Positions 1,782-52,933 of a DNA stretch of 64,000 bases are shown one piece after another (positions within the stretch are counted from its first letter, which is position 1; every line of letters begins with the position of its first letter). This DNA is from Candidatus Paceibacter sp. (GTDB taxonomy: Bacteria > Patescibacteriota > Minisyncoccia > UBA6257 > JAGOQP01), in the NCBI GenBank assembly GCA_020724905.1, contig DYGB01000001.1, positions 1,866 through 65,865 on the forward strand, in the 5' to 3' direction. The notes under the pieces were generated by a model. It was not told the DNA's origin and made no database searches. It saw only the letters and a list, made by a program, of their open reading frames with translations. A program made the position numbers and the translations under genes.

Positions 1782-2618
1782 CTACACATCTCCATTACAA
1801 ATCATATGAGCTTCTCTTTGAGCCTGAAGAAGATCAGATGCTTGTAATGATAATTTCTTTGCTACCTTCTCTACATCAATATGTAATATATCTCTCGCAA
1901 GTAACATACCCTCCTGACTGAGTCTCTCAAGTGCATATAAGGAAAGTGAAGGAAGAATAGTAATAGGATAGAGGCGTTTTGATTCAATCATTGACTCAAG
2001 CCCCCCACCATGTGGATAGCGCCATGCAAAAATAGAAAGCCCAACACACTCAGCATATGAGATAGCCTGAGATGTACATTTTGTATTAGTAACGATCCAT
2101 CCTTCATTGCTAAATGTATCTTTCCTTCCTCGAGCCTGAATAATATCCTCGTACCGGGCCTCTACATACAGAGCAACTTTCAAGTCAGATTTTATCCCTG
2201 CATTATTATGATATTTACACTCAATAAATAATCGTTTATTTCCCTTTGTTGCAACAACATCTATTTCATAAGACACACATTTCCCTGCAATAGTAACACC
2301 AACCTCAGTACTATATCCATCTTCTTGAAGAATACGAGCAACGTACTGTTCAAAGACATACCCTGCAGGACCTAAACGAAAAATAGCTTTTTTCAAAGAA
2401 TACTTCACTGCAGCAGGAGCATCATGAGAGATAAGGAAACGGAGTGCTCGTCGATAAATGTCATCTGAACTCATGCCTTCAAAAACACCTCCTGAAACAA
2501 ATGAGGAGGTATCTTTTGCAACACGAGGTGTTGTACCAGCGCGGAGAAGAGATGTTTTTAATTTCTTTTCAGAAAAACGTTCTTTTTCTCCTGATGATTT
2601 TATAATAAAAGGTTTCAT
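1782..2618 (-). CDS. ATP-cone domain fused to a Mrr-like PD-(D/E)xK restriction-endonuclease domain.
   Basis: The N-terminus (MKPFIIKSSGEKERFSEKKLKTSLLRAG...) resembles an NrdR-type ATP-cone. The central YEIDVVATKGNKRLFIECKYH matches the Mrr_cat D...E-x-K nuclease core. Confidence 0.5.
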   Translation of the reverse strand: MKPFIIKSSGEKERFSEKKLKTSLLRAGTTPRVAKDTSSFVSGGVFEGMSSDDIYRRALRFLISHDAPAAVKYSLKKAIFRLGPAGYVFEQYVARILQEDGYSTEVGVTIAGKCVSYEIDVVATKGNKRLFIECKYHNNAGIKSDLKVALYVEARYEDIIQARGRKDTFSNEGWIVTNTKCTSQAISYAECVGLSIFAWRYPHGGGLESMIESKRLYPITILPSLSLYALERLSQEGMLLARDILHIDVEKVAKKLSLQASDLLQAQREAHMICNGDV

Positions 2619-5071: not shown

Positions 5072-5887
5072 CTATCGTTCTGTTATAACACGCAACTCAT
5101 CACCTTCCCACCACACAGATATTGTCCCATCACGATCAGTTCGAAATAACACCGAACCAATCTCCCCTACAATATCTTCTACATACGCGGCAGGATGCCC
5201 ATACGAATTCTCCCCCACACTCACCACCGATACCTGAGGAGAAACAGCTTTCAAAAACAGTGGAGAAGAAGAATATGCAGAACCATGATGAGGAATTTTA
5301 AGGACATGAGAAAAGAGTCGCTCCCCATACAGTTCCACCAACTCCTCCTCAACTGAGGCGGTAATATCACCGGTAAATAGTATACGCAGATTTCCAAGTG
5401 TTACATGAAGCACAAGAGATGCTTCATTAAGATCACGCATCACATCTTCTCCTGGAGGCCACAAAACACGAATACTCATATTCTCACCCTCTATACGATC
5501 ACCTTGAGAAAGAACAACACACGCAATAGAGTGCATACGACATAAGCTTTTCATCTCAGCCAAAGGAGGAGAAGAAAATGCGATAAAACCAATAGGAAAT
5601 GTTCTGATGATACGTGTCAGTCCTCCCATGTGATCATACTGATTGTGTGAGATAAAAATACCATCAATAAAACGAACCCCCTCTATCATCTCATTGATGT
5701 ATGAAAATACATGGTCATCTTTCCCTACATCAATAAGGAATCGTCTCCCCTGATAGGTAAGATACGCACCATCTCCCTGTCCCACTGAAATAAAATACAC
5801 TCCCTCTTCTTTTTCAAAAGAACCATCCCACACAAGAACAGCAGAGAAAAAAACACACACCACAATAAAAACATACCAATACCTCAT
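5072..5887 (-). CDS. comEC: Metallo-beta-lactamase domain of ComEC/Rec2, encoded as a separate ORF.
   Basis: ComEC-type MBL motifs are present (ISHNQYDHMGGL, IPHHGS). Its start overlaps the stop of the upstream membrane ORF by 4 nt. Confidence 0.75.
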   Translation of the reverse strand: MRYWYVFIVVCVFFSAVLVWDGSFEKEEGVYFISVGQGDGAYLTYQGRRFLIDVGKDDHVFSYINEMIEGVRFIDGIFISHNQYDHMGGLTRIIRTFPIGFIAFSSPPLAEMKSLCRMHSIACVVLSQGDRIEGENMSIRVLWPPGEDVMRDLNEASLVLHVTLGNLRILFTGDITASVEEELVELYGERLFSHVLKIPHHGSAYSSSPLFLKAVSPQVSVVSVGENSYGHPAAYVEDIVGEIGSVLFRTDRDGTISVWWEGDELRVITER

Positions 5888-7374
5888 GAAATAATTCGTG
5901 TATATAGAGATGATCGAGTATACCGACCAATGATATATACAATACTTATGTAATAGGCGACCACTCCAATAAATGGAAATGAAACATCTATTGTTCCAAT
6001 AGAGGAGAACACATTACTCACCCACAAACTCATATCAAGTAACACTGAAAGAAGTTTTACCCCCACAGAGGAAATCCCCCAAGAAACAATTCCCCCTACC
6101 CCAACAATTCCTGCTCCAAGCATAATAAAAGGAATAAGAGGAAGAATAAATATATTGGCAATAAGTCCTCCAAAAGAAACAGAAGAAAAGAAAAAGAGAA
6201 GAATTGGTAATGCTCCAATCTGAGCAGATACTGTTTCAACAAAAATTTTCCAAAGGGTATAGAGAAATGGAGATGATAACGACACAATTCCCACAAGACG
6301 AGGAGCACAATACAAAATACCCCACAAAGCAGAAAACGAAAGAAGAAATCCAACATCATATACAAGAAGGGAAGGACGGAACAAAACCATTCCAACAGCA
6401 ACACACACCATGACATACCAATGCCACTGAGGACGAGAAAAGAGAGTTCCGATAAGTACGACAGACGCCATAGCAGCAGCACGCACCACTGATGCCTCTG
6501 CCCCAACAAGAACAACAAAGACCCATACACACAATAAACTCATCCCCACACTCCATCGTCGAGAAAGAAAGAGACGAAAGAGTATCGCAATAATAAACAC
6601 TACAATTGATACATTATATCCAGACAGAGCAACAACATGAATAATGCCACTCCCAATAAGCTTCTCAACAAGATCATCGGAAAAAGAAACACTGTCTCTT
6701 CCAATAATAGTCCCTGCAGCAAATGAAGCCTCATCAAAAGGAAGAACTCTACGAAGAGATGATACAATAGACTCCCGAAACGCATATAGACTCCTCAACA
6801 CACTTCCCTCCCCCTCAAAGATAGAAAGGTTAGAGGGAAAAAATGAAACATACTCCACACCACGAGCTTTCAAATACATCGTATCAGAAGAAAGGGGCTC
6901 AAGGTCATCGTGTAATACAACTCTATCACCATACGAGACACCACTATCAAGAGAATGAAGTACTCCAATAGACATACCACTCTCATCTTCAATAATAAAA
7001 AATTGGTACGAATCATACAGCCGTGGAGAAGAAGAAACTCTTCCTTCATAGACACCATCAAGAGCGCTCTGAGAAACTGTATGCATGTGCTCATACCACA
7101 TCCCATACCCCTGCCCTATCCCCACAAACACACACCCAAAAATAAAGACCAACACATACCGACGATAGGAAGGAATAATAAAAAAAATACTTGCACCTGC
7201 AAGTAATACTGATCCACTATATGAAATCCCCACCCCTCCATAGACATAAAACAAAGCGACACCCCCAAGAAAACAGCAGAGGAGGATAAATACAATCCCT
7301 CCCCCTCCCTGCCTAGAAATCAAACCCTCTCTGTGCTGAGCTCCCCTCATCATAATGATGGAACACAGAGTCAA
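5884..7374 (-). CDS. comEC: Transmembrane part of ComEC/Rec2 (DUF4131 plus Competence domain). The start is uncertain, because the annotated start overlaps the CobO-like gene by ~60 nt.
   Basis: A polytopic membrane protein with the Competence-domain pattern, sitting directly upstream of the MBL ORF. Confidence 0.7.
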   Translation of the reverse strand: MTLCSIIMMRGAQHREGLISRQGGGGIVFILLCCFLGGVALFYVYGGVGISYSGSVLLAGASIFFIIPSYRRYVLVFIFGCVFVGIGQGYGMWYEHMHTVSQSALDGVYEGRVSSSPRLYDSYQFFIIEDESGMSIGVLHSLDSGVSYGDRVVLHDDLEPLSSDTMYLKARGVEYVSFFPSNLSIFEGEGSVLRSLYAFRESIVSSLRRVLPFDEASFAAGTIIGRDSVSFSDDLVEKLIGSGIIHVVALSGYNVSIVVFIIAILFRLFLSRRWSVGMSLLCVWVFVVLVGAEASVVRAAAMASVVLIGTLFSRPQWHWYVMVCVAVGMVLFRPSLLVYDVGFLLSFSALWGILYCAPRLVGIVSLSSPFLYTLWKIFVETVSAQIGALPILLFFFSSVSFGGLIANIFILPLIPFIMLGAGIVGVGGIVSWGISSVGVKLLSVLLDMSLWVSNVFSSIGTIDVSFPFIGVVAYYISIVYIIGRYTRSSLYTRIIS

Positions 7375-15390: not shown

Positions 15391-16575
15391 TTATCGTATC
15401 TCTGCTCCTAACTCTTCTTGAGTTTTTTGAATAATGGTTCCTTGGATATTATTTACCTCATCATTGGTAAGGGTTCTTTCTGGAGAACGATACACGATAC
15501 GAAATGTGTAACTCACTTTCCCAGAACCAAATTTTTCTTTATTTCGATAGGTGTCAGTAAGTTTAACCTCCTCAATAAGATCATCAGCACAATCACGAAC
15601 AATTTCATAATAGTTATTCAAGCTTGTTTCCTCAGGAACAATAAAAGAAATATCTCGATAGGTCATAGGGTACTTACTCACCTCTTCATATACACTATCA
15701 AGACCTCTAAACTGATCTACGATACGAGGATCATCAGACCAAAATACACGGATATCAGGAATCTGCATCTTTGCCATAGCAAGTCGCTCAAGTCCAAATC
15801 CAAATGCCCATCCGTTATATACTTCAGGATCAACTCCCATACGTTTAAGAACTTCAGTGTGCACCACTCCGGCACCAACGACTTCAAGCCATTGTTTCTC
15901 TTCTTTTTCCTCTTCATCATTCCCCTTTCTCATAACTTCAATTTCAATCTGCGTACTTGGATTCGTAAACGGAAAAGTATCTTCTAAAAATCGATAGGTA
16001 ATACCATCTCCATAGATAGCTTTGGTAATAGCGGTTAACACTTCCTGTAGTTCAGGAATTCCAATAATATGTTTTTCTTTTTTGCAGATATAGAGTCCAT
16101 CTACCTGATGGAATACAGGAAAGTGATTCCTGTCTATCTCATCTTTCCGAAATACTTTCCCATGCGCTAAAAGACCCACCTCTCCTTCTTGTTCCAATTC
16201 TTCCATCGTTTCTTTCCGACGAAGATAGTAGGGCCACATCGTTGTCGTATGTGTTCGAAGTACATGAGTATCGTCAACATAATATGTATCAGTTTCATTC
16301 CGACTTGGATGATCTGAGGGTGTGTTTAAAATATCAAAATTATCCTCAACACTGACAATTTCAGGAAAATGCATTACATCAAACTGTGTAAACATATCCA
16401 ATGCAAGCACTGCATCAACAATATATTTGATAGGAGACCTTTCTTTTCGAGACAGATCAGGTAAGTGTAAAAGACGTTGCAAGCGAAGACCCTTAACATC
16501 TTCGCGTGTTTCAACGTCTTTTCTCAGTTTTTCACTGACAGGATCTGTGATATCGATATAATGTCTATCTGTCAT
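15391..16575 (-). CDS. pheS: Phenylalanyl-tRNA synthetase alpha-type catalytic domain fused to a C-terminal FDX-ACB anticodon-binding domain (monomeric, mitochondrial-like architecture). The start is trimmed to MTDRHYIDIT because the longer frame runs into tRNA-Leu.
   Basis: Class II motifs are present (HPSRNETDTYYV; FRKDEIDRNHFPVFHQVDG; GWAFGFGLERLAMAKM). The C-terminal ~95 aa (SKYPMTYRDISFIV...YRSPERTLTNDEVNNIQ...LGAEIR) match the PheT-type FDX-ACB domain. Confidence 0.8.
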   Translation of the reverse strand: MTDRHYIDITDPVSEKLRKDVETREDVKGLRLQRLLHLPDLSRKERSPIKYIVDAVLALDMFTQFDVMHFPEIVSVEDNFDILNTPSDHPSRNETDTYYVDDTHVLRTHTTTMWPYYLRRKETMEELEQEGEVGLLAHGKVFRKDEIDRNHFPVFHQVDGLYICKKEKHIIGIPELQEVLTAITKAIYGDGITYRFLEDTFPFTNPSTQIEIEVMRKGNDEEEKEEKQWLEVVGAGVVHTEVLKRMGVDPEVYNGWAFGFGLERLAMAKMQIPDIRVFWSDDPRIVDQFRGLDSVYEEVSKYPMTYRDISFIVPEETSLNNYYEIVRDCADDLIEEVKLTDTYRNKEKFGSGKVSYTFRIVYRSPERTLTNDEVNNIQGTIIQKTQEELGAEIR

Positions 16576-16649
16576 AATAATCCCAGTGTACTGAAAAAAA
16601 GACTGAAAAACAAATAAAAACACCTCTTTAAAAGAGATGTTTATATCTG

Positions 16650-16735
16650 TGCGCGAGAGAGGACTCGAACCTCCACGGGACGTAATGCCCACTACCACCT
16701 CAAGGTAGCGCGTCTACCAATTCCGCCACCCGCGC
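16650..16735 (-). tRNA. tRNA-Leu(GAG) with a long variable arm.
   Basis: The reverse complement folds as a cloverleaf with acceptor stem GCGCGGG/CTCGCGC. The anticodon loop TTGAGGT gives anticodon GAG. The T-loop is TTCGAGT. CCA is not encoded. Confidence 0.8.
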
Positions 16736-18939: not shown

Positions 18940-19590
18940 ATGCAACTCAATTACACAACACATATTTCTCCTCCACTCTCACATATCCCTCATCCCCCAA
19001 CGCAGCTCTACATACAGGGAACCTACACGCCAACACCCTATGGTGTTGCAGTGGTAGGAACTAGAAACCCTCTTATCTCATCAGAGCAAGAAGCATTTCT
19101 CTTCTCCTATATCTGTGCACAACAGGGCATTACCATTATTAGTGGTCTTGCCTACGGTATCGACGCCGCAGCACACACAGGAGCACTTGCAGCAAAAAAG
19201 CCAACATGGGCAGTTTGTGCTCATGGACTTAATCGCATCTACCCAAAAACACATACTCCCCTTGCCCATGCTATCCTTGAAGGAGGTGGAGCACTGATAT
19301 CAGAATACACACCACATACACCCCCTCTCCCAAAACAGTTTCTCCAGCGAAATAGAATTATTAGTGGTCTTGCAAGTGCTGTTGTTATTATAGAAGCTCC
19401 TCGACGATCAGGAACACTTAATACTGCTCGTCACGCTCTCGAACAAGGACGAGACGTATATGTATTTTCTCCTCTACAAGAACACAAAGAACGCTTCCAA
19501 GGGTCAGCTGACCTTATCGCTGATGGAGCAATTCCTATACGAAGCGCTCAAGACTTTTTATCCCTTCATACCTTCTATCCGTTGACATAA
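18940..19590 (+). CDS. dprA: DNA processing protein DprA/Smf (Rossmann core only).
   Basis: VAVVGTRNP...ISGLAYGIDAAAH...IEAPRRSGTLNTARHALEQGRDVYVF. Confidence 0.8.
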   Translation: MQLNYTTHISPPLSHIPHPPTQLYIQGTYTPTPYGVAVVGTRNPLISSEQEAFLFSYICAQQGITIISGLAYGIDAAAHTGALAAKKPTWAVCAHGLNRIYPKTHTPLAHAILEGGGALISEYTPHTPPLPKQFLQRNRIISGLASAVVIIEAPRRSGTLNTARHALEQGRDVYVFSPLQEHKERFQGSADLIADGAIPIRSAQDFLSLHTFYPLT

Positions 19591-29274: not shown

Positions 29275-30180
29275 TTAGTCTGATCGATTTGCACCATCGT
29301 ATATATATTTTTCACTGATTTTCCAAACACCTTTCTCTCGAAACGCTGGAATGTTTTGACGTCGAGCAGCATTAGTCATAGCAGGAGCAGACTTGCTATG
29401 TTTTTTTATATATTCAGACAAAGGAATAATAGGATCACCTCTTAGATAAGTAATTCGTTTATGTAAAGATTCTATGAGAGCAAGAGACACCACCTTTTCC
29501 ATCGTTTTAGTATTTTTATCATCACGATAATCATCAAAAGACCTATAATATTCTTTTTTCTCACTGTCCCGAATAATAATCATTGGAAACCCAAGTCGTT
29601 GAAGCTGAAAACAAATAAGTACACGACCGATACGACCATTCCCATCACAGAATGGATGAACTGTTTCAAAATTCAAATGGAACTTAACAATTTTGTCTAG
29701 AAAGTATGTAGTAAAATCACTCGTATATTCGGTAAGAATAGATTCAATCATGCGCTCAACATGCTCTGGAGCAGGTGCGACATGGGTACCAACTCGAACA
29801 TATTCTCCCTCAGTTCTAAATCGGCCAGCAATATTATCATCAATACCACCGATAAGCATCTGGTGCAAAAGCAAAATAATCTTTTTATTTATTTCTGTCT
29901 CTTGAGATTTGTTACGAACATATCCCATAACACGGGCAAGATTTTTCGCCTCAAACACCTCTCGAACTGAAACGTCTCGAGCAATTTCCATATCTAAAAG
30001 AATTTTTTCTGTTTCCTTTAGGGTGAGTGTAGAATTTTCAATAGCATTAGAATTATAAACACTTTCTGGCACCTCAGCTTCATCAATCATAACCAAAAGT
30101 GATTCTTTGTCTTTGCGGAGTGCATCAAACTCAGCTTTAAGAGCTGTTATTCGATCTTTAATTGGTTTAGTTGTTGCCAT
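29275..30180 (-). CDS. Fic-family protein with canonical HPFCDGNGR and an N-terminal inhibitory (S/T)xxxE(G/N) helix motif (SNAIEN).
   Basis: The Fic motif HPFCDGNGRIGR and the upstream SNAIENSTL motif are seen directly. Confidence 0.8.
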   Translation of the reverse strand: MATTKPIKDRITALKAEFDALRKDKESLLVMIDEAEVPESVYNSNAIENSTLTLKETEKILLDMEIARDVSVREVFEAKNLARVMGYVRNKSQETEINKKIILLLHQMLIGGIDDNIAGRFRTEGEYVRVGTHVAPAPEHVERMIESILTEYTSDFTTYFLDKIVKFHLNFETVHPFCDGNGRIGRVLICFQLQRLGFPMIIIRDSEKKEYYRSFDDYRDDKNTKTMEKVVSLALIESLHKRITYLRGDPIIPLSEYIKKHSKSAPAMTNAARRQNIPAFREKGVWKISEKYIYDGANRSD

Positions 30181-30329
30181 AGACTTTTTTACTACTATGC
30201 ATCTATTATAGTCTATTCACGTAAAAAAGTCAATCTTTAGTGAATGAGAGCCATATATTGCATGCCATTCACTAAAATATGGGCAATTAAAGCCTCTATA
30301 CACTACTCTGCTTAGAAAATAGCCTGTAT

Positions 30330-30902
30330 TTATACTCCTTTCTCTACTCGTTCAACGTATTCTCCCGTTTCTGTATTAACTCGAATAATATCCCCTGTTT
30401 GTATAAAAAATGGAGTATTGACTCGAGCACCTGTCTTTACCGTCACTGCTTTTGACCCTCCTGATGCAGTATCTCCTTTTATACTTGGGGGAGCTTCAAT
30501 AACTTCAAGATCAATTTTTGCAGGAAGCTGAATCCCAACAAAAGTATCATTAAACCAGATTGAAAGAATTTCTGTCTGCTCAACAAGATAATTTTTCTTC
30601 TCTCCAATCTGTTCATCTGAAAGTGAAAACCTGTTTTGAGGATTTCCCACTTCATCAAACCACCACTCTCCTTTACGAGCATACAGGAAACGAGCATTCA
30701 TTCTTTCAAGATCAGCTTCTCCAATATCATCACTTGGCTGAAATGAAAGTTCTTTTACTTTTTGTCCGATAACGTCACGAAGTTTTACCTTCATAACTGG
30801 CTTTCTCTGTTGCATGCGCAAAAAAGAAGCTTCGAGAACTTCATAAAGAGTTTCTTCAAAAACGATAAACATGCCTGGACGAACTTCATTATATGAAATC
30901 AT
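30330..30902 (-). CDS. efp: Elongation factor P.
   Basis: MISYNEVRPGMFIVFEETLYEV... matches the EF-P N-terminal KOW region and OB domains. Confidence 0.85.
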   Translation of the reverse strand: MISYNEVRPGMFIVFEETLYEVLEASFLRMQQRKPVMKVKLRDVIGQKVKELSFQPSDDIGEADLERMNARFLYARKGEWWFDEVGNPQNRFSLSDEQIGEKKNYLVEQTEILSIWFNDTFVGIQLPAKIDLEVIEAPPSIKGDTASGGSKAVTVKTGARVNTPFFIQTGDIIRVNTETGEYVERVEKGV

Positions 30903-30927: not shown

Positions 30928-32379
30928 TTATTTGTCTTTCCCTAATGCCTTTCGAATAACGTCTTTTAACTCTTTGACTGCTGTAGGTTTCTTTTCTCTT
31001 TCCTTGTGAGGTTTTTTCTTCCTCTCATCTTGTTTTAGTGTTTCAGCGAGAGACCGCTCCCCCTGTCGCGCAATCATCTCAGCAACACGCTCATGACTTC
31101 CAGCATATTCTTCCTGAATCTTTTTTTCAACCTCTCCTCGAGGAAGGGTAAACTTGTCACGAGAGTATTCCAAGATAACGTCATAGAGTGATTGTTTGGG
31201 GAGCGGTGGTGGAGGCAGTGTTCGAGCTGAGAAAGGACGAGATGACACCCCATCAATCATCAAACGGATATAGATATAGGTATTAGGAAGATTCACAAAA
31301 TCACTCGCCTCAAATTCCTCAAAGAATTCTTTTTCTAAAAATTCTGCATCATCTGCTCCTACCCGAAATACAATCATTGTTCCCACGTTACCAAAAATAG
31401 CAGATTTCACCCGTTCATTGTCATCAAGCTGATCAATATACTGGTGAGCAAGAATCAAACATAATCGATACTTTCGTGCCTCAGAAAGAATCGTTGCAAA
31501 TGATTCTGTTGCAAAGTTCTGAAACTCATCAACATAGAGATAAAAATCACGTCTCTCTTCTTGAGGAGTATCAACACGAGACATCGCAGCAAGCTGAAGT
31601 TTCGTAATAACCATAGCTCCAAGAAGCGCGGAGTTATCTTCACCAATTTTTCCTTTTGAAAGATTCACCACAAATATTTTCCCCTCATCCATGATACGTC
31701 GTGCATCAAATGATGAGTGTTCTTGTCCGATAATATTTCGAATCAACGGATTGGAGACAAACTGTCCCACCTTGTTCTGGATTGCAGCAACGGCCTCTGT
31801 TTCAAGTCGTTGTGTATAGCGAGCAAACTCATCAGCCCAGAATGAACGAACGATAGGGTCCTGAAGATTATCAACAATATTTTTCCGATACTCTTTATCA
31901 GAAAACATCTTCATAATCCCGAGCAATGTCGAATTAGGATACTCCAGCAATGCAAGAAGCGTATTGTTAAGAATATATTCCATGCGGGCAGACCAGGCAT
32001 CAGGCCATATCTTTTTAAACACAGACATAAGTCCAGAAGCAACCAAATGTCTTTGTTCAAAATCAACACGTTCAAGTGGATTAAATGCGATGGGGTAATT
32101 TGTATCAGCAGGGTTAAAATACACTACATCATTAACCCGCTCTTCAGGAATAAAGTGAAGTACTTCTTCAGCAACCTCACCATGTGGATCAACAATACAG
32201 ACTCCCTTCCCTGCTTTGATATCAGAAAGAACCATATTCAAAAGCAAGGTACTTTTCCCAGTACCTGATTTCCCAATGACATACATATGCTGTCTACGGT
32301 CAGCAGTTTTTACACCAAATATCCGTTCTTCATTTCGAAACGTTGTTTTCCCAAGGTGTAGAATATCTTTTTCATCCAT
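30928..32379 (-). CDS. P-loop ATPase of the FtsK/HerA/TraG superfamily (AAA_10/DUF87-like, T4SS coupling-protein-like).
   Basis: Walker A (YVIGKSGTGKSTLLLN), CIVDPHGE, Walker B (LYVDEFQNF) and ARKYRLCLILAHQYIDQL. Confidence 0.6.
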   Translation of the reverse strand: MDEKDILHLGKTTFRNEERIFGVKTADRRQHMYVIGKSGTGKSTLLLNMVLSDIKAGKGVCIVDPHGEVAEEVLHFIPEERVNDVVYFNPADTNYPIAFNPLERVDFEQRHLVASGLMSVFKKIWPDAWSARMEYILNNTLLALLEYPNSTLLGIMKMFSDKEYRKNIVDNLQDPIVRSFWADEFARYTQRLETEAVAAIQNKVGQFVSNPLIRNIIGQEHSSFDARRIMDEGKIFVVNLSKGKIGEDNSALLGAMVITKLQLAAMSRVDTPQEERRDFYLYVDEFQNFATESFATILSEARKYRLCLILAHQYIDQLDDNERVKSAIFGNVGTMIVFRVGADDAEFLEKEFFEEFEASDFVNLPNTYIYIRLMIDGVSSRPFSARTLPPPPLPKQSLYDVILEYSRDKFTLPRGEVEKKIQEEYAGSHERVAEMIARQGERSLAETLKQDERKKKPHKEREKKPTAVKELKDVIRKALGKDK

Positions 32380-32394
32380 AGCTTCACTATACCA

Positions 32395-33597
32395 CTATTC
32401 AAGTGGCAAATTAACTGGAGGCGTACCTTTACGAGAATCAATCTTTCCAAGACGAGGAGCACGAACTGATGAGAGAGGAAAATGAAACAGTGTTGCCAAC
32501 TCTTCTGAAGAGAGTATAGGGAACGTTTCATCAACCAAACGATTCGTATATCCAAACCGTCGTGTCTTAAGATAATCAAAGAGAATACGTTTTTTCCGTA
32601 ACATCGTTGTTTTCTTTATCTTAGGAAACAACTTCATCTTGATTCCTCCTGCAACAGTAATCAATTTGTCAGGACGAAGACCATTCATGTGCTGTGTATT
32701 GAATTGTTGCAGTGATCCCATAACTGATGAAATGTTAAGAAAGCTAAAACTATCTTTCCGATCAATATAGACGAATCGAAGATTAGCCTGGAACACATGT
32801 TTTGATGCTTTGTTCTCAATTGCTCTTATCACATCCCTATCTCCTCCTGTCATATCAGATTTTCCTTCTTCATCTTTCTTCTTTTCAATAATAGCTTTAA
32901 TTTCTTTTTGGGCGTCATCTTTGATAGAGACACCTGTTGCAGGACCCGTTGGACTTATCAAAAGCTGTATACATACCATCTCATCATCTTTCAGTTTTGA
33001 CATTGCTTCAAACAATGGAGCAAGAGGATCAATACGTTCTTCCTCCTTTGAAAGTTCATGGAAAAAATCATGATACGTACGAATAGGATACACACTGTTT
33101 TTCACAAGGGTAAATCCTGATCCCCAAAGATCATAGGTATCATCAGGAAGTGTTGCGGGAAGATCATCCATGTAGTCTGTTGTCTCAGATATTTCAGCAT
33201 CAGGATATTGGGCATAGAGTGCTGATTCTACAAGATTTCGATAATCTTTTGGTGTACGAACATAAAAAGAAATACCTCCTCCTCGAGCAACCATCTCAAA
33301 AGAAATCCATATGTCTACTTTTCCATCCAGATACTTGTTTAACGCAGGAATTCCAAATGAATAAATACCAAATAAGCTCGCAAATACTTGCTCCATTGAT
33401 TTTGGGCCTCGTGCCTCCCCATGAGGAATACGAATCTGTAATATATTCCATTCAATTCCTTCTATAAACAAATATCGTTTATAAAAAAGCCGCATTTTCC
33501 AACAGAGAACAGCGGCAAAAATAGGAACAACAATCCACAGAGCAACAGAGAGTGCTTTATATACACCGACAATAAGAATATCCTCTAAAAACGGCAT
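32395..33597 (-). CDS. Membrane-anchored hypothetical protein (two N-terminal TM helices plus a ~330-aa soluble domain), the partner of the downstream ATPase.
   Basis: The N-terminal hydrophobic segments are seen directly. The gene is packed tightly between the HTH gene and the ATPase gene. Confidence 0.4.
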   Translation of the reverse strand: MPFLEDILIVGVYKALSVALWIVVPIFAAVLCWKMRLFYKRYLFIEGIEWNILQIRIPHGEARGPKSMEQVFASLFGIYSFGIPALNKYLDGKVDIWISFEMVARGGGISFYVRTPKDYRNLVESALYAQYPDAEISETTDYMDDLPATLPDDTYDLWGSGFTLVKNSVYPIRTYHDFFHELSKEEERIDPLAPLFEAMSKLKDDEMVCIQLLISPTGPATGVSIKDDAQKEIKAIIEKKKDEEGKSDMTGGDRDVIRAIENKASKHVFQANLRFVYIDRKDSFSFLNISSVMGSLQQFNTQHMNGLRPDKLITVAGGIKMKLFPKIKKTTMLRKKRILFDYLKTRRFGYTNRLVDETFPILSSEELATLFHFPLSSVRAPRLGKIDSRKGTPPVNLPLE

Positions 33598-33600
33598 AAA

Positions 33601-34635
33601 TTATGCAAGATGATAGTGTCCCTTATCGTTTTTTTTGAAAAACTTTTTATTCTGCAAATTAAGGAAAATAGTATTGTATTTCAATACACGTTCCTGAGAA
33701 ACAAGACTTACAATATCTTCAAGAGGAAGTGAACCGTGCTTCTTTAAAATACGTTGTAACACTTCACGTGTTGTTCCTGGTTCAACACCAAACTCTCGAA
33801 GAGAATACAGTCCTCGTCCAACCAACACAAATCGCTTATCTTTTATCAATTCATTATGTACTGTTTGAGGATGAGCTTTCTTTGTATCAAATTCAATATC
33901 ATTAATATGTTGTGCAATGTCACGAAAGTGCATTGGTTCTTTTCTTTTCTTCAAAATCAAGTATGACTTGTCACGAACTGTTTTTGGAGTAATCTCAGGC
34001 CATTCTACAAGTCCAAAATCTCCAAATGGATTTACTGAAAACTTCTTTGAGTTTAACAAATAGTTAAGCGCAATAAATTCTTTAATTTTGTGTTGTTTTG
34101 TTGCCTGAGCAAATAACTGATCAAATTCTTTTCTCTCAACCAACATTTCTTTTTTACTCTTAAGAAGTGTTCGTACTTTCTTTACAAATGATTTCAATTC
34201 TTTTACATGCTCTTCTTGGGTATACCAAAATGGATAGAACTCACTATTCTCTCCAAAAATCTGAGGCTTTTTAAAAGTAGCGAATAGTAATGAAACGTAT
34301 GGTTCGCTCACATCATGATCTTTAAAGACGAATTTCAAGTCATCAACTAATAAATCTGCGCGACGAATACCACCAAGAGAGGCGATATGATCAAGTGCCT
34401 TTTCAAGAAATGAAACAGCATCAGCATTATCCTGAGCTTCTCCTCGGATAGATTTAAGTGCTGCGTTTTCAATTTGACGAACTCGTTCTCGGGTAATTCC
34501 ATATTCTTCACCAAGAGAAGCAAGCGTCTGAGGCTCTTTCCCAAGTAATCCGAATCGACGAACAACAATATCTCGCTGTCGTTTTGGGAGCGAGGAAACG
34601 AGAGAATCCAATGTAGAATGTAATGTCATACTCAA
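33601..34635 (-). CDS. DNA-binding protein with an N-terminal sigma-70 region-4-like HTH and a C-terminal HARE-HTH-like domain.
   Basis: The N-terminus (RQRDIVVRRFGLLGKEPQTLASLGEEYGITRERVRQIENAALKSIR) matches the sigma70 r4.2 consensus. The C-terminus (FRDIAQHIND...HPQTVHNELIKDKRFVLVGRGLYSLREFG) matches the HARE-HTH pattern. Confidence 0.5.
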   Translation of the reverse strand: MSMTLHSTLDSLVSSLPKRQRDIVVRRFGLLGKEPQTLASLGEEYGITRERVRQIENAALKSIRGEAQDNADAVSFLEKALDHIASLGGIRRADLLVDDLKFVFKDHDVSEPYVSLLFATFKKPQIFGENSEFYPFWYTQEEHVKELKSFVKKVRTLLKSKKEMLVERKEFDQLFAQATKQHKIKEFIALNYLLNSKKFSVNPFGDFGLVEWPEITPKTVRDKSYLILKKRKEPMHFRDIAQHINDIEFDTKKAHPQTVHNELIKDKRFVLVGRGLYSLREFGVEPGTTREVLQRILKKHGSLPLEDIVSLVSQERVLKYNTIFLNLQNKKFFKKNDKGHYHLA

Positions 34636-34686
34636 TAAAATTATACCACTAATTATACTGTAGTTTTCAGGTAGTGTCTATATACC

Positions 34687-38145: not shown

Positions 38146-41100
38146 TTATTTCTTTACCCCTATTGTCATCGATGTTCCTCTCAACGAAAGTTCTTTTTTG
38201 GCATCAACAGACGTGCCTGGTTCATACACAAATGCAACTGCATGAACTTCTTTTTTAAGTATACGCTCATGATTCTTCAAAAACGAGATAACATCATGGT
38301 GCCCCTGTATATGAAGGGTAATCTCATCATGAAATGCATATCCTGCATCTTGTCGAAGTCCTTGTACGAAACGAATAAATTCACGAATATCTCCTTCATC
38401 TTTAAGGTCTTCACTTAATGTCGTATCAAGAACGAAGTCTTCTTCTTGAGATACTCCAAAAACAATGCGCTTCACATTCACCTCATCTTGGAGAAGCGTA
38501 ATAAGTTGTGATGCATAGGTACCAGTCAATTTCTTTCGTTTACATGAAAGTGTTGCAAGTGGTTGACGCACCTTTATCTGAGCGCTTGCTCGTTGTGCAA
38601 GCACTTCACTTGCAGCATCCCTAACCCACTGCATATCAGCGATAAGTTTTTTGTAACGTGTATCAAAGCCATGTTCTGGCCATCCTTCAAGGTGAACTGA
38701 ATCAGCTCCTTTGATGGTGTAGAGATTTTTAAGTGACTGATAGAGCGCCTCTGAGAAAAATGGAATAAAAGGAGCGGTAAGTTTACTCAATGAAAGTAAT
38801 ACATAACCAAGTACTGAGGATGTCATCTCCCATTCTTTCTTTGTCTCAGGTTTTTGTAATCGTCGTCGAGAACGACGGATATACCATCGAGACATGTCAT
38901 CAACAAATGTTTCAACAGCAGATGAGGCACGGGTAATATCATACTCATCCATAGCATCTTTTACGATCTGCTCTGTCTCTCCCAATCGTGCCAAAATCCA
39001 TACATCAAGCACATGCTCACTTTCAGGTGCAGCGGAAAGAGAAAGTTTCTTCTTTCCATATAGTTCAAGGAATGAAAATGAGTTGTACATAACAAGCAAG
39101 AATCGTCTCAAGATATTCCCCACATCAGCTTCATCAAAATTCTTTGGTTCTCCTGGAGCATTGATAGTAAAGAAATACCAACGAATTGCATCGATACCAT
39201 ACTTTTCAATAAGTGCCCATGGGTCAACAACATTTCCTTTTGACTTAGACATTTTCTGTCCATTCTTATCAAGCACCAATCCAAGAGACACCACATTTTT
39301 GTATGGTGTTCCTAGTCCCAATAGAACTGCTGTTGCCATAAGGGTATAGAACCATCCACGTGTTTGATCAATTCCCTCAGAAATAAAGTCTGCAGGAAAT
39401 CCATGTGGCTTTTTACCCTCTGCCTTAAAAGGAAAGTGGGTACTTCCATACGGCATTGAACCAGAATCAAACCACACATCAGCAACATCAGGAACTCGTT
39501 TCATTACCTCTCCAGAATCAGAACGTAGGAAAACCTCATCAACATAAGGACGATGCATATCAATCATACCAAGCGCATCAATAGGGAGGTTATCAGAAAC
39601 ACAAGATACATATCCTCCCGTAGGAATAAAGTGTTTCTTTTCTTTCTTTATCATTTCCTCCATTGATAGATGTTCCATGACAGCACGAAACATACGAAGC
39701 GTATCTCCATGACTTACCACTGCAATGGTCTTGTCTGGATATTTCCTCTGCATCTCTTTGTAAAATTCTGTTACCCGTACACGAACATCATGTAGTGATT
39801 CAGCTCCCTCAGGAGCATCCATAACAGGATCGATATCTTTTTGAGAAAAGAATCCATAAAATTCAGAAATAGCTTTATGTGCATATATTCCTGCTTCTCG
39901 TTCTTTAATACGCTCATCAACAATGACACGCTTTACCCCAAGTTCCCGAGAAAGAAGCTCAGCTGTTTGTTTCGTTCGAGTATAAGGAGAAGAGACGATA
40001 ATATCAACATTCTCTTGTACAAGCTTTTTGGCTAAATGAGCAACTTCTTCTTTTCCTTTCTCGGTAAGACGGGAGGTATATTCTTTTGTTTCCTTCCCTG
40101 AAGCCCACCATCCTTCAACATTGGCACGAGCTTCTCCATGACGAATAAGAAGGAAGGTATTACTATGAGCACGATATGTCGTGAGATCTTCTAAGCTCTT
40201 TACCACCCGAATTTCTCCTGTATCAGATTTCCAGATAGGAAGTGGCGTACCCCAGTATCGTTCACGTGAAATTGCCCAATCTTTTGCCTGCGCAATCCAT
40301 TCTCCAAAACGCCCCTCTTTAATATGTGCAGGAACCCATGATACTCCTTTATTTGCTTTAAGAAGTTCTTTACGAAGTGAAGACACTTCAAAAAACCATG
40401 CTCGACGAGCCCAATAGATAAGAGGTGAAGAACAACGCCAACAAAATGGATATTCATGATCGCCGTGACCTCCCTTAAGAAGCAATCCCTTTTCTTCAAG
40501 GTATGCACTAATAACACTATCAGCCTCCTTTATCGGCTTTCCTTCTCCAATGCATCCTTCTGCTACTTTCCCATCAGCGGTAATGGTCTGAGGAAGTATA
40601 TGTTCTTCCTTAAGACCATCAGGAAATACAAGTGAAAAATCATCCTCTCCAAAACTTGGAGCAATATGAACAAGACCAGTCCCCTCATCGGTAGAAACAA
40701 AGTCAGCGCCACGAACATAATAGCGATCAAATGGTAAAGATACCTCTCCTTCATACGGAACAGCGGGAAGATACTCCCATCCAACCATCTCGCTTCCTTT
40801 CTTTTTTACCTTACTTGTTTCTTCATATCCTTCAGGAAGCTTATGAGCCCATACCTTCTTTCCTTCAAGAGAAAACTGATGATATATCACCTTTGGATCA
40901 AGGGCGATAGCAACGTTTGCAGAAAGTGTCCATGGTGTTGTCGTCCACACTAATAAAAATTCATTCTTCTTCCCCTTGAGAGGAAAAAGTACGTAGACCG
41001 AAGGATCACTCACCGTTTGATATACTCCTGGTTGTCCTAACTCATGGTTTGCAAGTGCTGTTTGACAGCGATAACAATACGGAGTCACTTTATATGATTC

Positions 41101-41616
41101 TTTTAAATACCCTCTTTCTGCGATACGAGAAAACACCCACCACAGACTCTCTATATATTCAGGAGCATAGGTAACATATGCATTATCAAGATCAAGCCAG
41201 TATCCAATGCGTTCGGTAAGTTTCTCCCACTCATCTTTGTAGCGAAAGATAGATTCTCGTGCTTTGTTATTAAACGTATCAATACCAATACGCTCAATGT
41301 CTTTTTTTGTTTGTATCCCAAGGCTTTTTTCAGTTTCTATCTCAATAGGGAGTCCATGTGTATCCCACCCTCCCTTTCGAGGAACACGGTACCCTTGCAT
41401 TGTTTTGTACCGAAGAAAGACATCTTTCATAGCACGAGCAAGAATATGGTGTATTCCAGGACGTCCATTCGCATACGGAGGACCTTCCCAAAAATAAAAT
41501 TCCTCTCCCTCTGTATTGTGAGAAAGGCTTTTTTCAAAAATCTTTTTCTTCTTCCATAACGAAAGAATGTTTTCTTCTACTTCCGATGCATTAAATGCTT
41601 TAAGTTTTTCTAACAT
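38146..41616 (-). CDS. ileS: Isoleucyl-tRNA synthetase with a complete histidine-phosphatase (PGAM-like, RHG) domain inserted between the WxISRxRYWGxP motif and the KMSKS region.
   Basis: HIGH region (PPYANGRPGIHH), GWDTHGLPIE, the editing domain (TTTPWT...GTGLVHIAPSFGEDD) and KMSKS. The ~190-aa insert is LLIRHGEARAN...SHGDTLRM. Confidence 0.9.
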   Translation of the reverse strand: MLEKLKAFNASEVEENILSLWKKKKIFEKSLSHNTEGEEFYFWEGPPYANGRPGIHHILARAMKDVFLRYKTMQGYRVPRKGGWDTHGLPIEIETEKSLGIQTKKDIERIGIDTFNNKARESIFRYKDEWEKLTERIGYWLDLDNAYVTYAPEYIESLWWVFSRIAERGYLKESYKVTPYCYRCQTALANHELGQPGVYQTVSDPSVYVLFPLKGKKNEFLLVWTTTPWTLSANVAIALDPKVIYHQFSLEGKKVWAHKLPEGYEETSKVKKKGSEMVGWEYLPAVPYEGEVSLPFDRYYVRGADFVSTDEGTGLVHIAPSFGEDDFSLVFPDGLKEEHILPQTITADGKVAEGCIGEGKPIKEADSVISAYLEEKGLLLKGGHGDHEYPFCWRCSSPLIYWARRAWFFEVSSLRKELLKANKGVSWVPAHIKEGRFGEWIAQAKDWAISRERYWGTPLPIWKSDTGEIRVVKSLEDLTTYRAHSNTFLLIRHGEARANVEGWWASGKETKEYTSRLTEKGKEEVAHLAKKLVQENVDIIVSSPYTRTKQTAELLSRELGVKRVIVDERIKEREAGIYAHKAISEFYGFFSQKDIDPVMDAPEGAESLHDVRVRVTEFYKEMQRKYPDKTIAVVSHGDTLRMFRAVMEHLSMEEMIKKEKKHFIPTGGYVSCVSDNLPIDALGMIDMHRPYVDEVFLRSDSGEVMKRVPDVADVWFDSGSMPYGSTHFPFKAEGKKPHGFPADFISEGIDQTRGWFYTLMATAVLLGLGTPYKNVVSLGLVLDKNGQKMSKSKGNVVDPWALIEKYGIDAIRWYFFTINAPGEPKNFDEADVGNILRRFLLVMYNSFSFLELYGKKKLSLSAAPESEHVLDVWILARLGETEQIVKDAMDEYDITRASSAVETFVDDMSRWYIRRSRRRLQKPETKKEWEMTSSVLGYVLLSLSKLTAPFIPFFSEALYQSLKNLYTIKGADSVHLEGWPEHGFDTRYKKLIADMQWVRDAASEVLAQRASAQIKVRQPLATLSCKRKKLTGTYASQLITLLQDEVNVKRIVFGVSQEEDFVLDTTLSEDLKDEGDIREFIRFVQGLRQDAGYAFHDEITLHIQGHHDVISFLKNHERILKKEVHAVAFVYEPGTSVDAKKELSLRGTSMTIGVKK

Positions 41617-52017: not shown

Positions 52018-52933
52018 TCAATAGCTTTGCAACACCTGTGTGTGATACAACCATAGATATATGCCATATACGTCAAATCCTCATATACCAGAGGTACGCA
52101 GACAAGCAGTTATGCATGTACGCTCTGGATGGTCGATGCGCATGACCGCTCGTCACTTTGGAGTCCAGCCCAGTACTATTTCTCGATGGGTGAAACGAAT
52201 GCCCTCTCATGGAAGGAGTGTCATTCAAACCCTTTCTTCACGCCCTCTGGGACATCCTCGAGCACTACCTCCTGATGTGGTGCGTGCTATCATCTCATAC
52301 CGAGAGCGGTATCATCGTTGTGCAGACGTGATTCACTGGCATCTGAAAAACGATGGCTATCACCTCTCCCTCTCGTCAGTGAAACGAACCTTGAGAAGAA
52401 ATCATCTCACCTATCCTTCTCTCTGGAAGAAATGGTATCACTCCACTCCTCGCCCCGTCCCTCAATCCCCTGGAAAACTCATTGAAATTGATACCATTAT
52501 GGACGGTCCTGTACACGGGAGAATCTATATCTACACACTTCTGGATGTGTGTTCTCGCTGGGCATATGCAGCTCCTTCACTGCATGCTCGAGCAGGCATC
52601 AGTGTGCAGATGCTCCGTTCTGCACAGACAGCCTCTCCATTTCGATTTGAAACAATTCAATCAGATCATGGAAGTGAGTTCTCACGCTACTTCACCAAGG
52701 GATGTGACACCCTTCATATGATCCATCGTCACAGCAGAGTGAGAACCCCTACCGACAACGCCCATCTGGAACGATTTAACAGAACCATACAACATGAGTG
52801 TCTTTCCCATGTTCCTCGGAGATTATCGATCTATACCAAAGAAATTTATGACTATATCCACTATTACAATTATGAACGTCCTCATATGTCGCTGGGGATG
52901 AAAACGCCTATGGAAGTGTTGCGAAGCTATTGA
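52018..52933 (+). mobile_element. IS481-family insertion sequence, ~0.9 kb, with 18-bp imperfect terminal inverted repeats (17/18 identical) and a visibly more GC-rich composition than its flanks.
   Basis: Left end TCAATAGCTTTGCAACAC at ~52018-52035. Right end GTGTTGCGAAGCTATTGA at ~52916-52933, whose reverse complement is TCAATAGCTTCGCAACAC. A DDE transposase ORF lies inside, and its 3' end lies within the right IR. Confidence 0.7.
52061..52933 (+). CDS. IS481-family DDE transposase (HTH plus rve integrase core).
   Basis: N-terminal HTH (ARHFGVQPSTISRWVKR) and rve core (...IEIDTIMDGPVHGRIYIYTLLDVCSRWA...QSDHGSEF...HSRVRTPTDNAHLERFNRT). Confidence 0.8.
   Translation: MPYTSNPHIPEVRRQAVMHVRSGWSMRMTARHFGVQPSTISRWVKRMPSHGRSVIQTLSSRPLGHPRALPPDVVRAIISYRERYHRCADVIHWHLKNDGYHLSLSSVKRTLRRNHLTYPSLWKKWYHSTPRPVPQSPGKLIEIDTIMDGPVHGRIYIYTLLDVCSRWAYAAPSLHARAGISVQMLRSAQTASPFRFETIQSDHGSEFSRYFTKGCDTLHMIHRHSRVRTPTDNAHLERFNRTIQHECLSHVPRRLSIYTKEIYDYIHYYNYERPHMSLGMKTPMEVLRSY

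Follow-up and report, generated by a model that had tools for sequence, protein, structure and literature searches.

Patescibacteria (the candidate phyla radiation, CPR) comprise a very large share of bacterial diversity and live off host cells in a mode that is poorly understood. A recent survey reports 5713 VirD4-type homologues of the type IV coupling protein (T4CP) in 2918 of 3035 Patescibacteria genomes, only 148 of them near virB4, with VirB4 itself present in 2417 genomes, and leaves the function of these homologues open (Quinonero-Coronel et al. 2025, PMC12102498). What does an ATPase of this type do in an ordinary chromosome, and with which partners? The question is raised by a stretch of 64,000 nucleotides from Candidatus Paceibacter sp. 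(contig DYGB01000001.1, positions 1,866 to 65,865, assembly GCA_020724905.1), referred to here as the window and numbered from its first nucleotide, in which three adjacent minus-strand genes encode, in order of transcription, a protein with helix-turn-helix (HTH) modules, a membrane protein of family DUF8128 and an ATPase. Here, we describe a computational analysis of this triplet. We propose that it is a conserved operon for a nucleic-acid-binding partner and a translocation ATPase of the VirB4/VirD4 class, which is built from two parts, tethered to the membrane and docked to a type IV secretion system (T4SS), a reading to which we assign a probability of roughly 0.6. The architecture and the partnership within it are well supported.

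The first gene of the triplet (33601-34635, minus strand) encodes 344 amino acids when read from a TTG codon; an ATG at 34629, two codons inside this open reading frame (ORF), is the likelier start. It is followed after 3 nt by the DUF8128 gene (32395-33597, 400 amino acids) and, after a further 15 nt, by the ATPase gene (30928-32379, 483 amino acids), so that the order, sizes and tight packing described in an earlier first-pass annotation of the window are confirmed. The conservation of this arrangement was examined by scanning one genome per species. At least 573 genomes carry a DUF8128 relative, all of them Patescibacteria by title except three metagenome-assembled genomes titled 'uncultured Gammaproteobacteria', and 80 loci at 31-55% identity were kept. 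ORFs in the loci were scored with the window proteins, and the denominators given below are the loci with enough flanking sequence. The HTH gene lies directly upstream of the DUF8128 gene in 72 of 74 loci, the ATPase gene directly downstream of it in 69 of 75, and the whole triplet recurs in the same order and on the same strand in 62 of 68, far beyond chance, with median spacers of 33 nt and 22 nt. In a sublineage represented by three loci (L064, L067 and L077) the order is LeuRS-HTH-DUF8128-YceG and the ATPase gene is not adjacent. The surroundings are those of housekeeping genes (secDF, efp, mnmA and aminoacyl-tRNA synthetase genes) rather than of defence islands; EF-P follows the ATPase in 25 of 58 loci, 13 of these on the same strand. 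Across the loci, the ATPase has a median identity of 62% to its window counterpart (72 loci), compared with 52% for SecD, 46% each for SecF, EF-P and MnmA, 39% for the HTH protein and 35% for the DUF8128 protein. The triplet is thus a core, vertically inherited and non-mobile element.

In 47 of 67 loci, secD and secF directly precede the HTH gene. This frequent proximity raises the possibility that the ATPase works with SecDF/SecYEG in protein export or in the quality control of membrane proteins, and T4CPs do recruit protein substrates as well. The 51-nt spacer between secF and the HTH gene of the window, however, contains a σ70-type promoter-like site just upstream of the HTH start (34652-34680, minus strand; TAGACA-17-TATAAT, 11 of 12 consensus positions). 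A comparable TTGACA-17-TATAxT site, matching at 10 or more of 12 positions, is present in this spacer in 26 of 49 related loci and in 4% of shuffled spacers. Because the site is conserved, the triplet is, as far as sequence can tell, a transcription unit of its own with a predicted promoter, not an extension of secDF. Furthermore, the link to secDF is gone in 30% of loci in which the triplet is still there, and the partner domains of the ATPase bind nucleic acid. A role in the Sec pathway is thus improbable.

All the ATPase motifs quoted in the first-pass annotation are present. Walker A (GKSGTGKST, 32248-32274, residues 36-44) aligns to Walker A of TrwB and is followed by CIVDPHGE at residues 61-68; Walker B (YVDEFQNF, 31513-31536, residues 282-289) precedes ARKYRL (31462-31479, residues 301-306) and AHQ (31438-31449, residues 311-313), all on the minus strand, and the region from Walker B to AHQ aligns to LFIDELAS...KGRKAGL...GLQS of TrwB. 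The earlier assignment to the coupling-protein/HerA superfamily is borne out by Pfam matches to TrwB_AAD_bind (PF10412, 54.7 bits against a cut-off of 20.5), T4SS-DNA_transf (PF02534, 49.5 against 20.1), TraG-D_C and DUF87 (32.7 against 23.2), the last being a generic model of the central domain. FtsK_SpoIIIE (PF01580) scores 18.3 bits, under its 24-bit cut-off. The NCBIfam equivalogs (TraD, VirD4-like CD1115) are not reached, the best being NF045973 at 52.7 bits against a cut-off of 250, and the VirB4-type model TIGR00929 gives 14.5 bits against 643. TrwB was the sole match in a sequence search of the PDB (E 2.8e-7). BLASTP aligns the ATPase to R388 TrwB at 24% identity over 307 amino acids (E 5e-13), across the nucleotide-binding domain (NBD) and the all-alpha region, and finds no match to TrwK; likewise, TrwB matches 83 of 83 ATPase ORFs in the related loci and TrwK none of the 83. 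More than 8000 homologues were found, the best 120 of which are 62-94% identical (at most 76% apart from one near-identical protein) and bear the NCBI name 'type IV secretory system conjugative DNA transfer family protein'.

As the first-pass annotation had stated, the 483-residue ATPase has no transmembrane (TM) segment by hydropathy, and no N-terminal domain precedes Walker A at residue 36. A predicted all-alpha insertion (31705-32097, minus strand, residues ~95-225) occupies the position of the T4CP all-alpha domain: the alignment spans TrwB residues 177-300, the TrwB_AAD_bind match covers the insertion, and a model of a fused paralogue, described below, is helical at residues 512-626. By these sequence criteria, the ATPase is a soluble T4CP-type motor with all of its catalytic motifs intact. 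Its C-terminal tail (30931-31062, minus strand, residues ~440-483) is variable and lysine-rich in the window, and in eight orthologues the variable tail carries a treble-clef zinc finger (PF23477, CxxC...VPFKPDxxRPVYCxxC; L040:11351-12991, L057:11235-12959, L035:3576-5327 and five others). Together, these tails give a second hint that the machine handles nucleic acid. In one genome, a second copy of the soluble ATPase stands in tandem after the first (L035:3576-5327 and 5563-6999).

The T4CP families matched by the ATPase and the NCBI name of its homologues would also be expected of an integrated conjugative element that has decayed to an orphan coupling protein with an accessory DNA-binding protein, and a DNA-binding gene followed by a T4CP gene recalls trwA-trwB. 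Intact catalytic motifs, vertically inherited synteny and a purifying selection stronger than that on SecD all argue against decay, and GC content and skew over the three genes equal those of the flanks. Moreover, phmmer, a method of limited sensitivity here, found no relaxase, integrase, VirB4, VirB6 or other mating-pair-formation gene within 10 kb in 81 loci, and no relaxase or mating-pair-formation gene occurs in the annotated parts of the window. This explanation is close to refuted.

A defence module of the HerA, DndH or MADS (mad8) type, acting against phages or plasmids, fares little better, although the first-pass annotation had offered a HerA-type module as one possible role. Among the PADLOC families, the ATPase matches mad8 (E 7.8e-19) and, more weakly, HerA and DndH, HARE-HTH and σ4 (MzaA) domains such as those of the HTH protein occur in defence systems, and a fic gene lies nearby. 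The mad8, HerA and DndH matches of the ATPase come without partner genes of a known defence family: MADS needs mad6, mad7 and mad8, of which only mad8 was matched among the four proteins scanned, the DUF8128 protein has no PADLOC match, the HTH protein (MzaA, PDC-S48) and the Fic protein (PDC-S04, SoFic and others) match only non-MADS families, and there is no nuclease, Sir2 or NurA effector. Rather than immediately upstream of the triplet, as had been reported, fic follows the triplet in the direction of transcription, ~750 bp away and separated from it by efp (30330-30902), and a Fic homologue occurs within 10 kb in only 1 of 81 related loci, so that the gene looks as if it had been inserted independently between efp and mnmA. 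In addition, defence islands are patchy, variable and mobile, whereas this module is near-universal, holds a fixed housekeeping position and has a median ATPase identity of 62%; a search of 2.9 million viral contigs returned a single chimeric edge fragment. Since no PADLOC partner, no relaxase, integrase or VirB neighbour and essentially no viral copies were found, both a defence island and a conjugative remnant are unlikely, the former highly improbable in its own right. The outcomes that the first-pass annotation had named as refuting its proposal, a lack of conserved synteny or clear matches to a characterised T4SS or defence family, did not arise: gene order is conserved to a high degree, and neither T4SS components nor PADLOC partners are matched by the neighbours.

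The 1309 homologues of the membrane protein are all patescibacterial wherever a source is named, and 1.84 billion cluster representatives searched with a profile include 3475 members, 1086 of them at E ≤1e-30. Among the matches listed, precomputed annotation places nearly all of at least 120 homologues, including one that is 96% identical (P0001), in PF26449 (DUF8128), so that membership of the window protein is near certain by proxy; the protein itself had no match in NCBIfam, in PADLOC or in a Pfam set that lacks the PF26449 model. Hydropathy places one TM helix at residues 15-33 (33499-33555, minus strand). An AlphaFold2 (AF2) model with a predicted local distance difference test score (pLDDT) of 87 and a predicted template modelling score (pTM) of 0.83 shows one continuous helix at residues 2-47 followed by a compact alpha/beta domain; the tail at residues 378-400 is disordered. 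Both analyses thus give one TM helix, where two had been proposed. Since a stretch rich in lysine and arginine follows the helix, the positive-inside rule predicts an N-out/C-in topology and, therefore, a cytoplasmic soluble domain (32467-33456, residues ~48-377).

The fold of this domain links the protein to VirB4. In Foldseek searches with the DUF8128 model, R388 TrwK chains rank first (E about 1e-5, probability 1.00) and no P-loop ATPase appears among the matches, indicating that the part of TrwK that is matched is the VirB4 N-terminal domain (NTD). When the ATPase domain was included in the search, VirB4 C-terminal domains (CTDs), TrwB and HerA dominated. In VirB4 itself, the NTD is embedded in the membrane, holds together the two protomers within a dimer and binds to VirB3 and VirB8 (PMC12857230). 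The C-terminal tail of the DUF8128 protein (32398-32514, minus strand, residues 362-400: SSEELATLFHFP..APRL...PPVNLPLE) is a candidate docking element for the ATPase. An alignment of 32 family members reveals an invariant tail, EELAT.H.P...AP.L...PP..LP, which contains the conserved SSEELATLFHFP motif already noticed in the first-pass annotation, and the motif is still present in loci without an adjacent ATPase gene. In the isolated model of the anchor the tail has a pLDDT below 50.

That the DUF8128 protein and the ATPase form one unit is indicated by natural gene fusions. Two loci (L052:81-2543 and L039:19361-21259) contain a second, single ORF in which a TM helix and a DUF8128 domain, tail motif included, are continued by a T4CP ATPase, and the same genomes hold the split triplet too. 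This fused family has at least 120 members among the matches listed, mostly 830-890 amino acids long with a few shorter or partial; they are 55-77% identical, excluding the query's own record and one partial match, all carry PF26449 and T4CP domains, and some lie on contigs of 0.85-0.9 Mb. Residues 92-398 of the window DUF8128 protein correspond to residues 114-408 of a fused protein, P0241 (E 1e-20), and residues 7-423 of the window ATPase to residues 412-833 of the same protein at 46% identity. This collinear, gapless match is evidence of the classic Rosetta-stone kind for a joint action of the DUF8128 protein and the ATPase. Like the window protein, P0241 has no DUF8128 match in the Pfam set without the PF26449 model. 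An AF2 model of the fused protein, based on 45 natural fusions, has a pLDDT of 84 and a pTM of 0.70; in it, the former tail (residues 381-411) reaches a pLDDT of 80-90 and residues 512-626 form an all-helical block. Together, conserved adjacency, natural fusions and structure models strongly back the earlier proposal that the separate upstream protein is the membrane anchor of the ATPase, and from the models we infer that its tail binds the ATPase physically.

The fused paralogue occurs in other housekeeping contexts, and further fused genes were seen at L085:10001-12541 and L086:10001-12565. Directly upstream of the fused gene there is a conserved gene for a partner of ~175 amino acids (L085:9472-9996 and L086:9153-9695). 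These proteins have no Pfam match and share a C-terminal motif, IPGVNKFFLEQEAKIK; over 96 amino acids, their sequences are 42% identical. The ~175-residue protein may be the counterpart, for the fused form, of a partner protein.

The third component combines, from N to C terminus, σ70 region 4, a variable middle, a HARE-HTH domain and a second winged-helix-like unit. Region 4 (34444-34596, minus strand, residues 14-64, TLxxIGxxYGITRERVRQIE) matches PF04545 at E 1.7e-14 and the HARE-HTH winged helix (33790-33981, residues 219-282) matches PF05066 at E 5e-8, which agrees with the dual DNA-binding module of the first-pass annotation; the conserved C-terminal unit (33604-33783) was defined from the family alignment. 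Because the protein lacks σ region 2, it is not a σ factor, and all NCBIfam σ models score far under their cut-offs. Nor does it resemble the RNA polymerase (RNAP) δ subunit in layout, since the HARE-HTH domain is central rather than N-terminal and there is no acidic tail; the δ model (RpoE, TIGR04567) gives 34 bits against a cut-off of 42. Adjacency of the HTH and DUF8128 genes is the most stable that was measured (72 of 74), which argues for a functional tie between their products.

It is nevertheless possible, if doubtful, that the machine consists of the DUF8128 protein and the ATPase only, and that the HTH protein is a transcription factor, associated with RNAP or regulating the operon, that merely shares their transcription unit. 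Its region 4 is of the primary-sigma type, the family profile matching RpoD/SigA region-4 structures at E 1e-18, and this module binds the -35 element and the RNAP β-flap; the HARE-HTH fold is also the DNA-binding fold of the δ subunit. Operons often start with their own regulator, and the fused paralogue has no HTH neighbour. On the other side, the HTH-DUF8128 pair is kept even where the flanks and the ATPase gene have moved, as in the LeuRS-YceG sublineage described above, and in the window the stop codon of the first gene and the start codon of the second are only 3 nt apart.

We propose the following model, in which the HTH protein is part of the machine. The DUF8128 protein would be inserted in the membrane through its single N-terminal helix and would present a cytoplasmic, VirB4-NTD-like scaffold, while its invariant C-terminal tail would hold the soluble T4CP-type motor. 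The split pair would in this way reproduce the order of TM helix, VirB4-NTD-like domain and ATPase found in the single-chain paralogue, and the assembly at the membrane is probably oligomeric. The motor would act at the membrane as an ATP-driven coupling or translocation ATPase on DNA or nucleoprotein recruited by the HTH protein. The co-transcribed HTH protein would most likely serve as an adaptor that binds DNA or as a factor that lends the motor its specificity, analogous to TrwA, TraM and PcfF on plasmid T4CPs or to the γ domain on FtsK, and may also autoregulate the operon. Finally, the VirB4-NTD-like module would dock the motor onto the chromosomal VirB4-type T4SS of the phylum, in whose gene cluster a coupling protein is usually missing. 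In S. epibionticum, whose T4SS is the one studied genetically and is essential, neither a coupling protein nor a relaxase can be recognised for it (Wang et al. 2023, PMC10633639), and the triplet may encode the coupling ATPase that the chromosomal T4SS of this phylum seems to lack.

Several observations weigh against this model. The likeness of DUF8128 to the VirB4 NTD is at the level of fold only, with Foldseek TM-scores of about 0.4, and hhalign of DUF8128 against TrwK and against pSK41 TrsD finds nothing. The evidence for a packed tail is a single-chain AF2 model of a paralogue. No HTH gene is found near the fused paralogue, so the motor architecture does not in itself call for the HTH protein. 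That protein could be a plain transcription factor. As for docking, phmmer with R388 and pSK41 references, again of limited sensitivity, detects no T4SS gene within 10 kb in the 81 loci. In S. epibionticum a t4cp homologue is reported to be non-essential, whereas the T4SS genes are essential. T4CP homologues are present in 96% of genomes compared with 80% for VirB4, and at least some must therefore act without a T4SS.

The last of these points, together with the lack of T4SS genes near the triplet, favours the main alternative, an autonomous tripartite DNA pump, like FtsK or TraB but split in three, with DUF8128 as anchor, the ATPase as motor and the HTH protein as a reader of DNA sequence. 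Such a pump would work independently of a T4SS in chromosome segregation or clearance at division, or in the import of DNA or nucleotides. The extreme conservation of the ATPase is as expected of a housekeeping function, the winged-helix partner and the zinc-finger tails of some ATPases suit a DNA pump, the division and cell-wall genes ftsW and yceG are nearby in some loci, and Patescibacteria need a source of nucleotides besides competence (PMC11665869). However, it is hard to see how anchors with one TM helix each would provide a channel, the ATPase resembles TrwB rather than FtsK, whose Pfam model it fails to reach, and the fused paralogue lacks the HTH partner that would read the sequence. 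FtsK is, moreover, mentioned in transcriptome studies of Saccharibacteria TM7x, as judged by titles and term counts. We regard an autonomous pump as rather unlikely.

A broader and more speculative proposal, which we would hold only tentatively, is that the DUF8128/T4CP module, in its split and fused forms alike, constitutes a third phylum-wide branch beside VirB4 and VirD4 with a housekeeping role. In one version it would be the coupling motor of the essential T4SS that lacks a relaxase, docking by mimicry of the VirB4 NTD and feeding host-derived DNA or nucleoprotein through it, which would supply the unexplained route of nucleotide acquisition independent of competence; in the other it would be a stand-alone DNA pump. 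In either version it would be a living intermediate between the architectures of VirB4 and VirD4. The finding that orphan ATPases come with a dedicated VirB4-NTD-like anchor, fused to them or encoded one gene upstream, suggests a possible evolutionary link between the two architectures. What had been a puzzle of annotation becomes a defined machine of three components, whose contacts can be tested at the tail peptide, in the docking of NTD to NTD and in the binding of DNA by the HTH protein. Even if its function is ordinary, DUF8128 and thousands of CPR annotations as 'conjugative DNA transfer family' could be reinterpreted as one core module, and those annotations would then not be evidence of conjugation.

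Outside the triplet, too, the window is unremarkable core chromosome, from a Patescibacterium with relatives in Wolfebacteria and Paceibacteria. On one side of the triplet it contains dprA, topA, relA/spoT, eno, a gene for a PEP-utilising enzyme, mnmA, fic and efp, and beyond the triplet secF, secD, a gene for a DUF4147/MOFRL protein, ileS, tmRNA, parAB, alr, murD and leuS. The first-pass annotation had suggested that the triplet complements ComEC and DprA in DNA uptake or export. Both genes are indeed present in the window (comEC at 5072-7374, as two ORFs, and dprA at 18940-19590), but they share with the triplet only the same 64 kb, lying 12-24 kb away, and a shared role does not follow. The two comEC ORFs (5072-5887 and 5884-7374, minus strand) overlap by 4 nt and encode a metallo-beta-lactamase domain of 271 amino acids and a Competence domain of 496 amino acids; this layout could be a genuine split or a frameshift. 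The Fic-domain protein (29275-30180, minus strand) matches PADLOC families PDC-S04 (E 4e-35) and SoFic (E 2e-27), and its gene has a near-consensus promoter of its own at 30205-30233.

Several other genes in the window have unusual features. The isoleucyl-tRNA synthetase (38146-41616, minus strand, 1156 amino acids) contains a histidine-phosphatase domain (His_Phos_1, PGAM-like, residues 489-655, E 2e-32) that interrupts the catalytic domain, an unusual insertion. A 435-residue protein (15391-16698, minus strand), with a counterpart at L001:10799-11935, fuses a phenylalanyl-tRNA synthetase (PheRS) alpha-type catalytic core to an FDX-ACB anticodon-binding domain, which we take to be the architecture of monomeric mitochondrial-type PheRS. 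At one end of the window, a 576-residue protein (13-1743, plus strand) ends in a Por_Secre_tail domain (E 2e-9), a sorting domain of the type IX secretion system that is unexpected in a Patescibacterium, and in its neighbour (1782-2618, minus strand, 278 amino acids) an ATP-cone is joined to the catalytic domain of an Mrr-type restriction endonuclease, with an AF1548-like domain at the C terminus. An IS-type transposase with an HTH and an rve integrase core (52061-52933, plus strand), beside leuS, is the sole mobile-element gene seen among the annotated ORFs of the window.

The first-pass annotation could match none of the three genes to a named system. The pairing of DUF8128 with the ATPase, the VirB4-NTD-like fold and the HTH partner do appear to be undescribed, our literature search having found no paper on any of these or on DUF8128/PF26449; the individual proteins are less novel, as the membrane protein belongs to DUF8128 and the ATPase has been catalogued (PMC12102498). 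The window-type ATPases are almost certainly the same set as the orphan VirD4-type T4CP homologues of that survey, whose number, about two in each genome, is what one split copy and one fused copy would give. The passages of the survey that were read contain neither the DUF8128 partner or fusion, the VirB4-NTD-like fold and the split and fused forms, nor the σ4/HARE-HTH partner or the operon.

The likeness to the EccE-EccC pair of the ESX type VII system is weak, EccC being a membrane-embedded protein with three NBDs and no other ESX component being present here. HerA has a HAS-barrel that the window ATPase lacks. FtsK, SpoIIIE and Streptomyces TraB differ in that here the modules are separate proteins with different folds, with no multi-pass membrane domain, no γ domain and a sub-threshold match to the FtsK Pfam model. 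The T4CPs VirD4, TrwB and TraD are closer: the window ATPase passes both Pfam T4CP models, has the predicted all-alpha domain, conserves Walker A, Walker B, the arginine-containing ARKYRL and AHQ, and is preceded by a DNA-binding gene, as in trwA-trwB. Unlike these proteins, it has no N-terminal TM domain, its anchor is separate and of unrelated fold, or in the paralogues fused as one TM helix and a VirB4-NTD-like domain, and it is chromosomal, vertically inherited and near-universal in the phylum.

From VirB4 (TrwK, TraC, TrsE) the triplet differs as well. There is no sequence-level likeness of DUF8128 to the TrwK NTD or TrsD, the ATPase is T4CP-like, the anchor has its own TM helix and does not rely on VirB3, and the parts that correspond to NTD and CTD are encoded by two genes, united in one chain only in the ~850-residue paralogues. 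A separate, bona fide VirB4 is encoded elsewhere in Patescibacteria (PMC12102498). What the pair formed by DUF8128 and the ATPase shares with VirB4 is the order of membrane element, NTD and RecA-like ATPase, and a modelled fold that matches the TrwK NTD. A precedent for the split exists in TrsD and TrsE of pSK41/pGO1, where the NTD-like trsD lies directly upstream of the ATPase gene.

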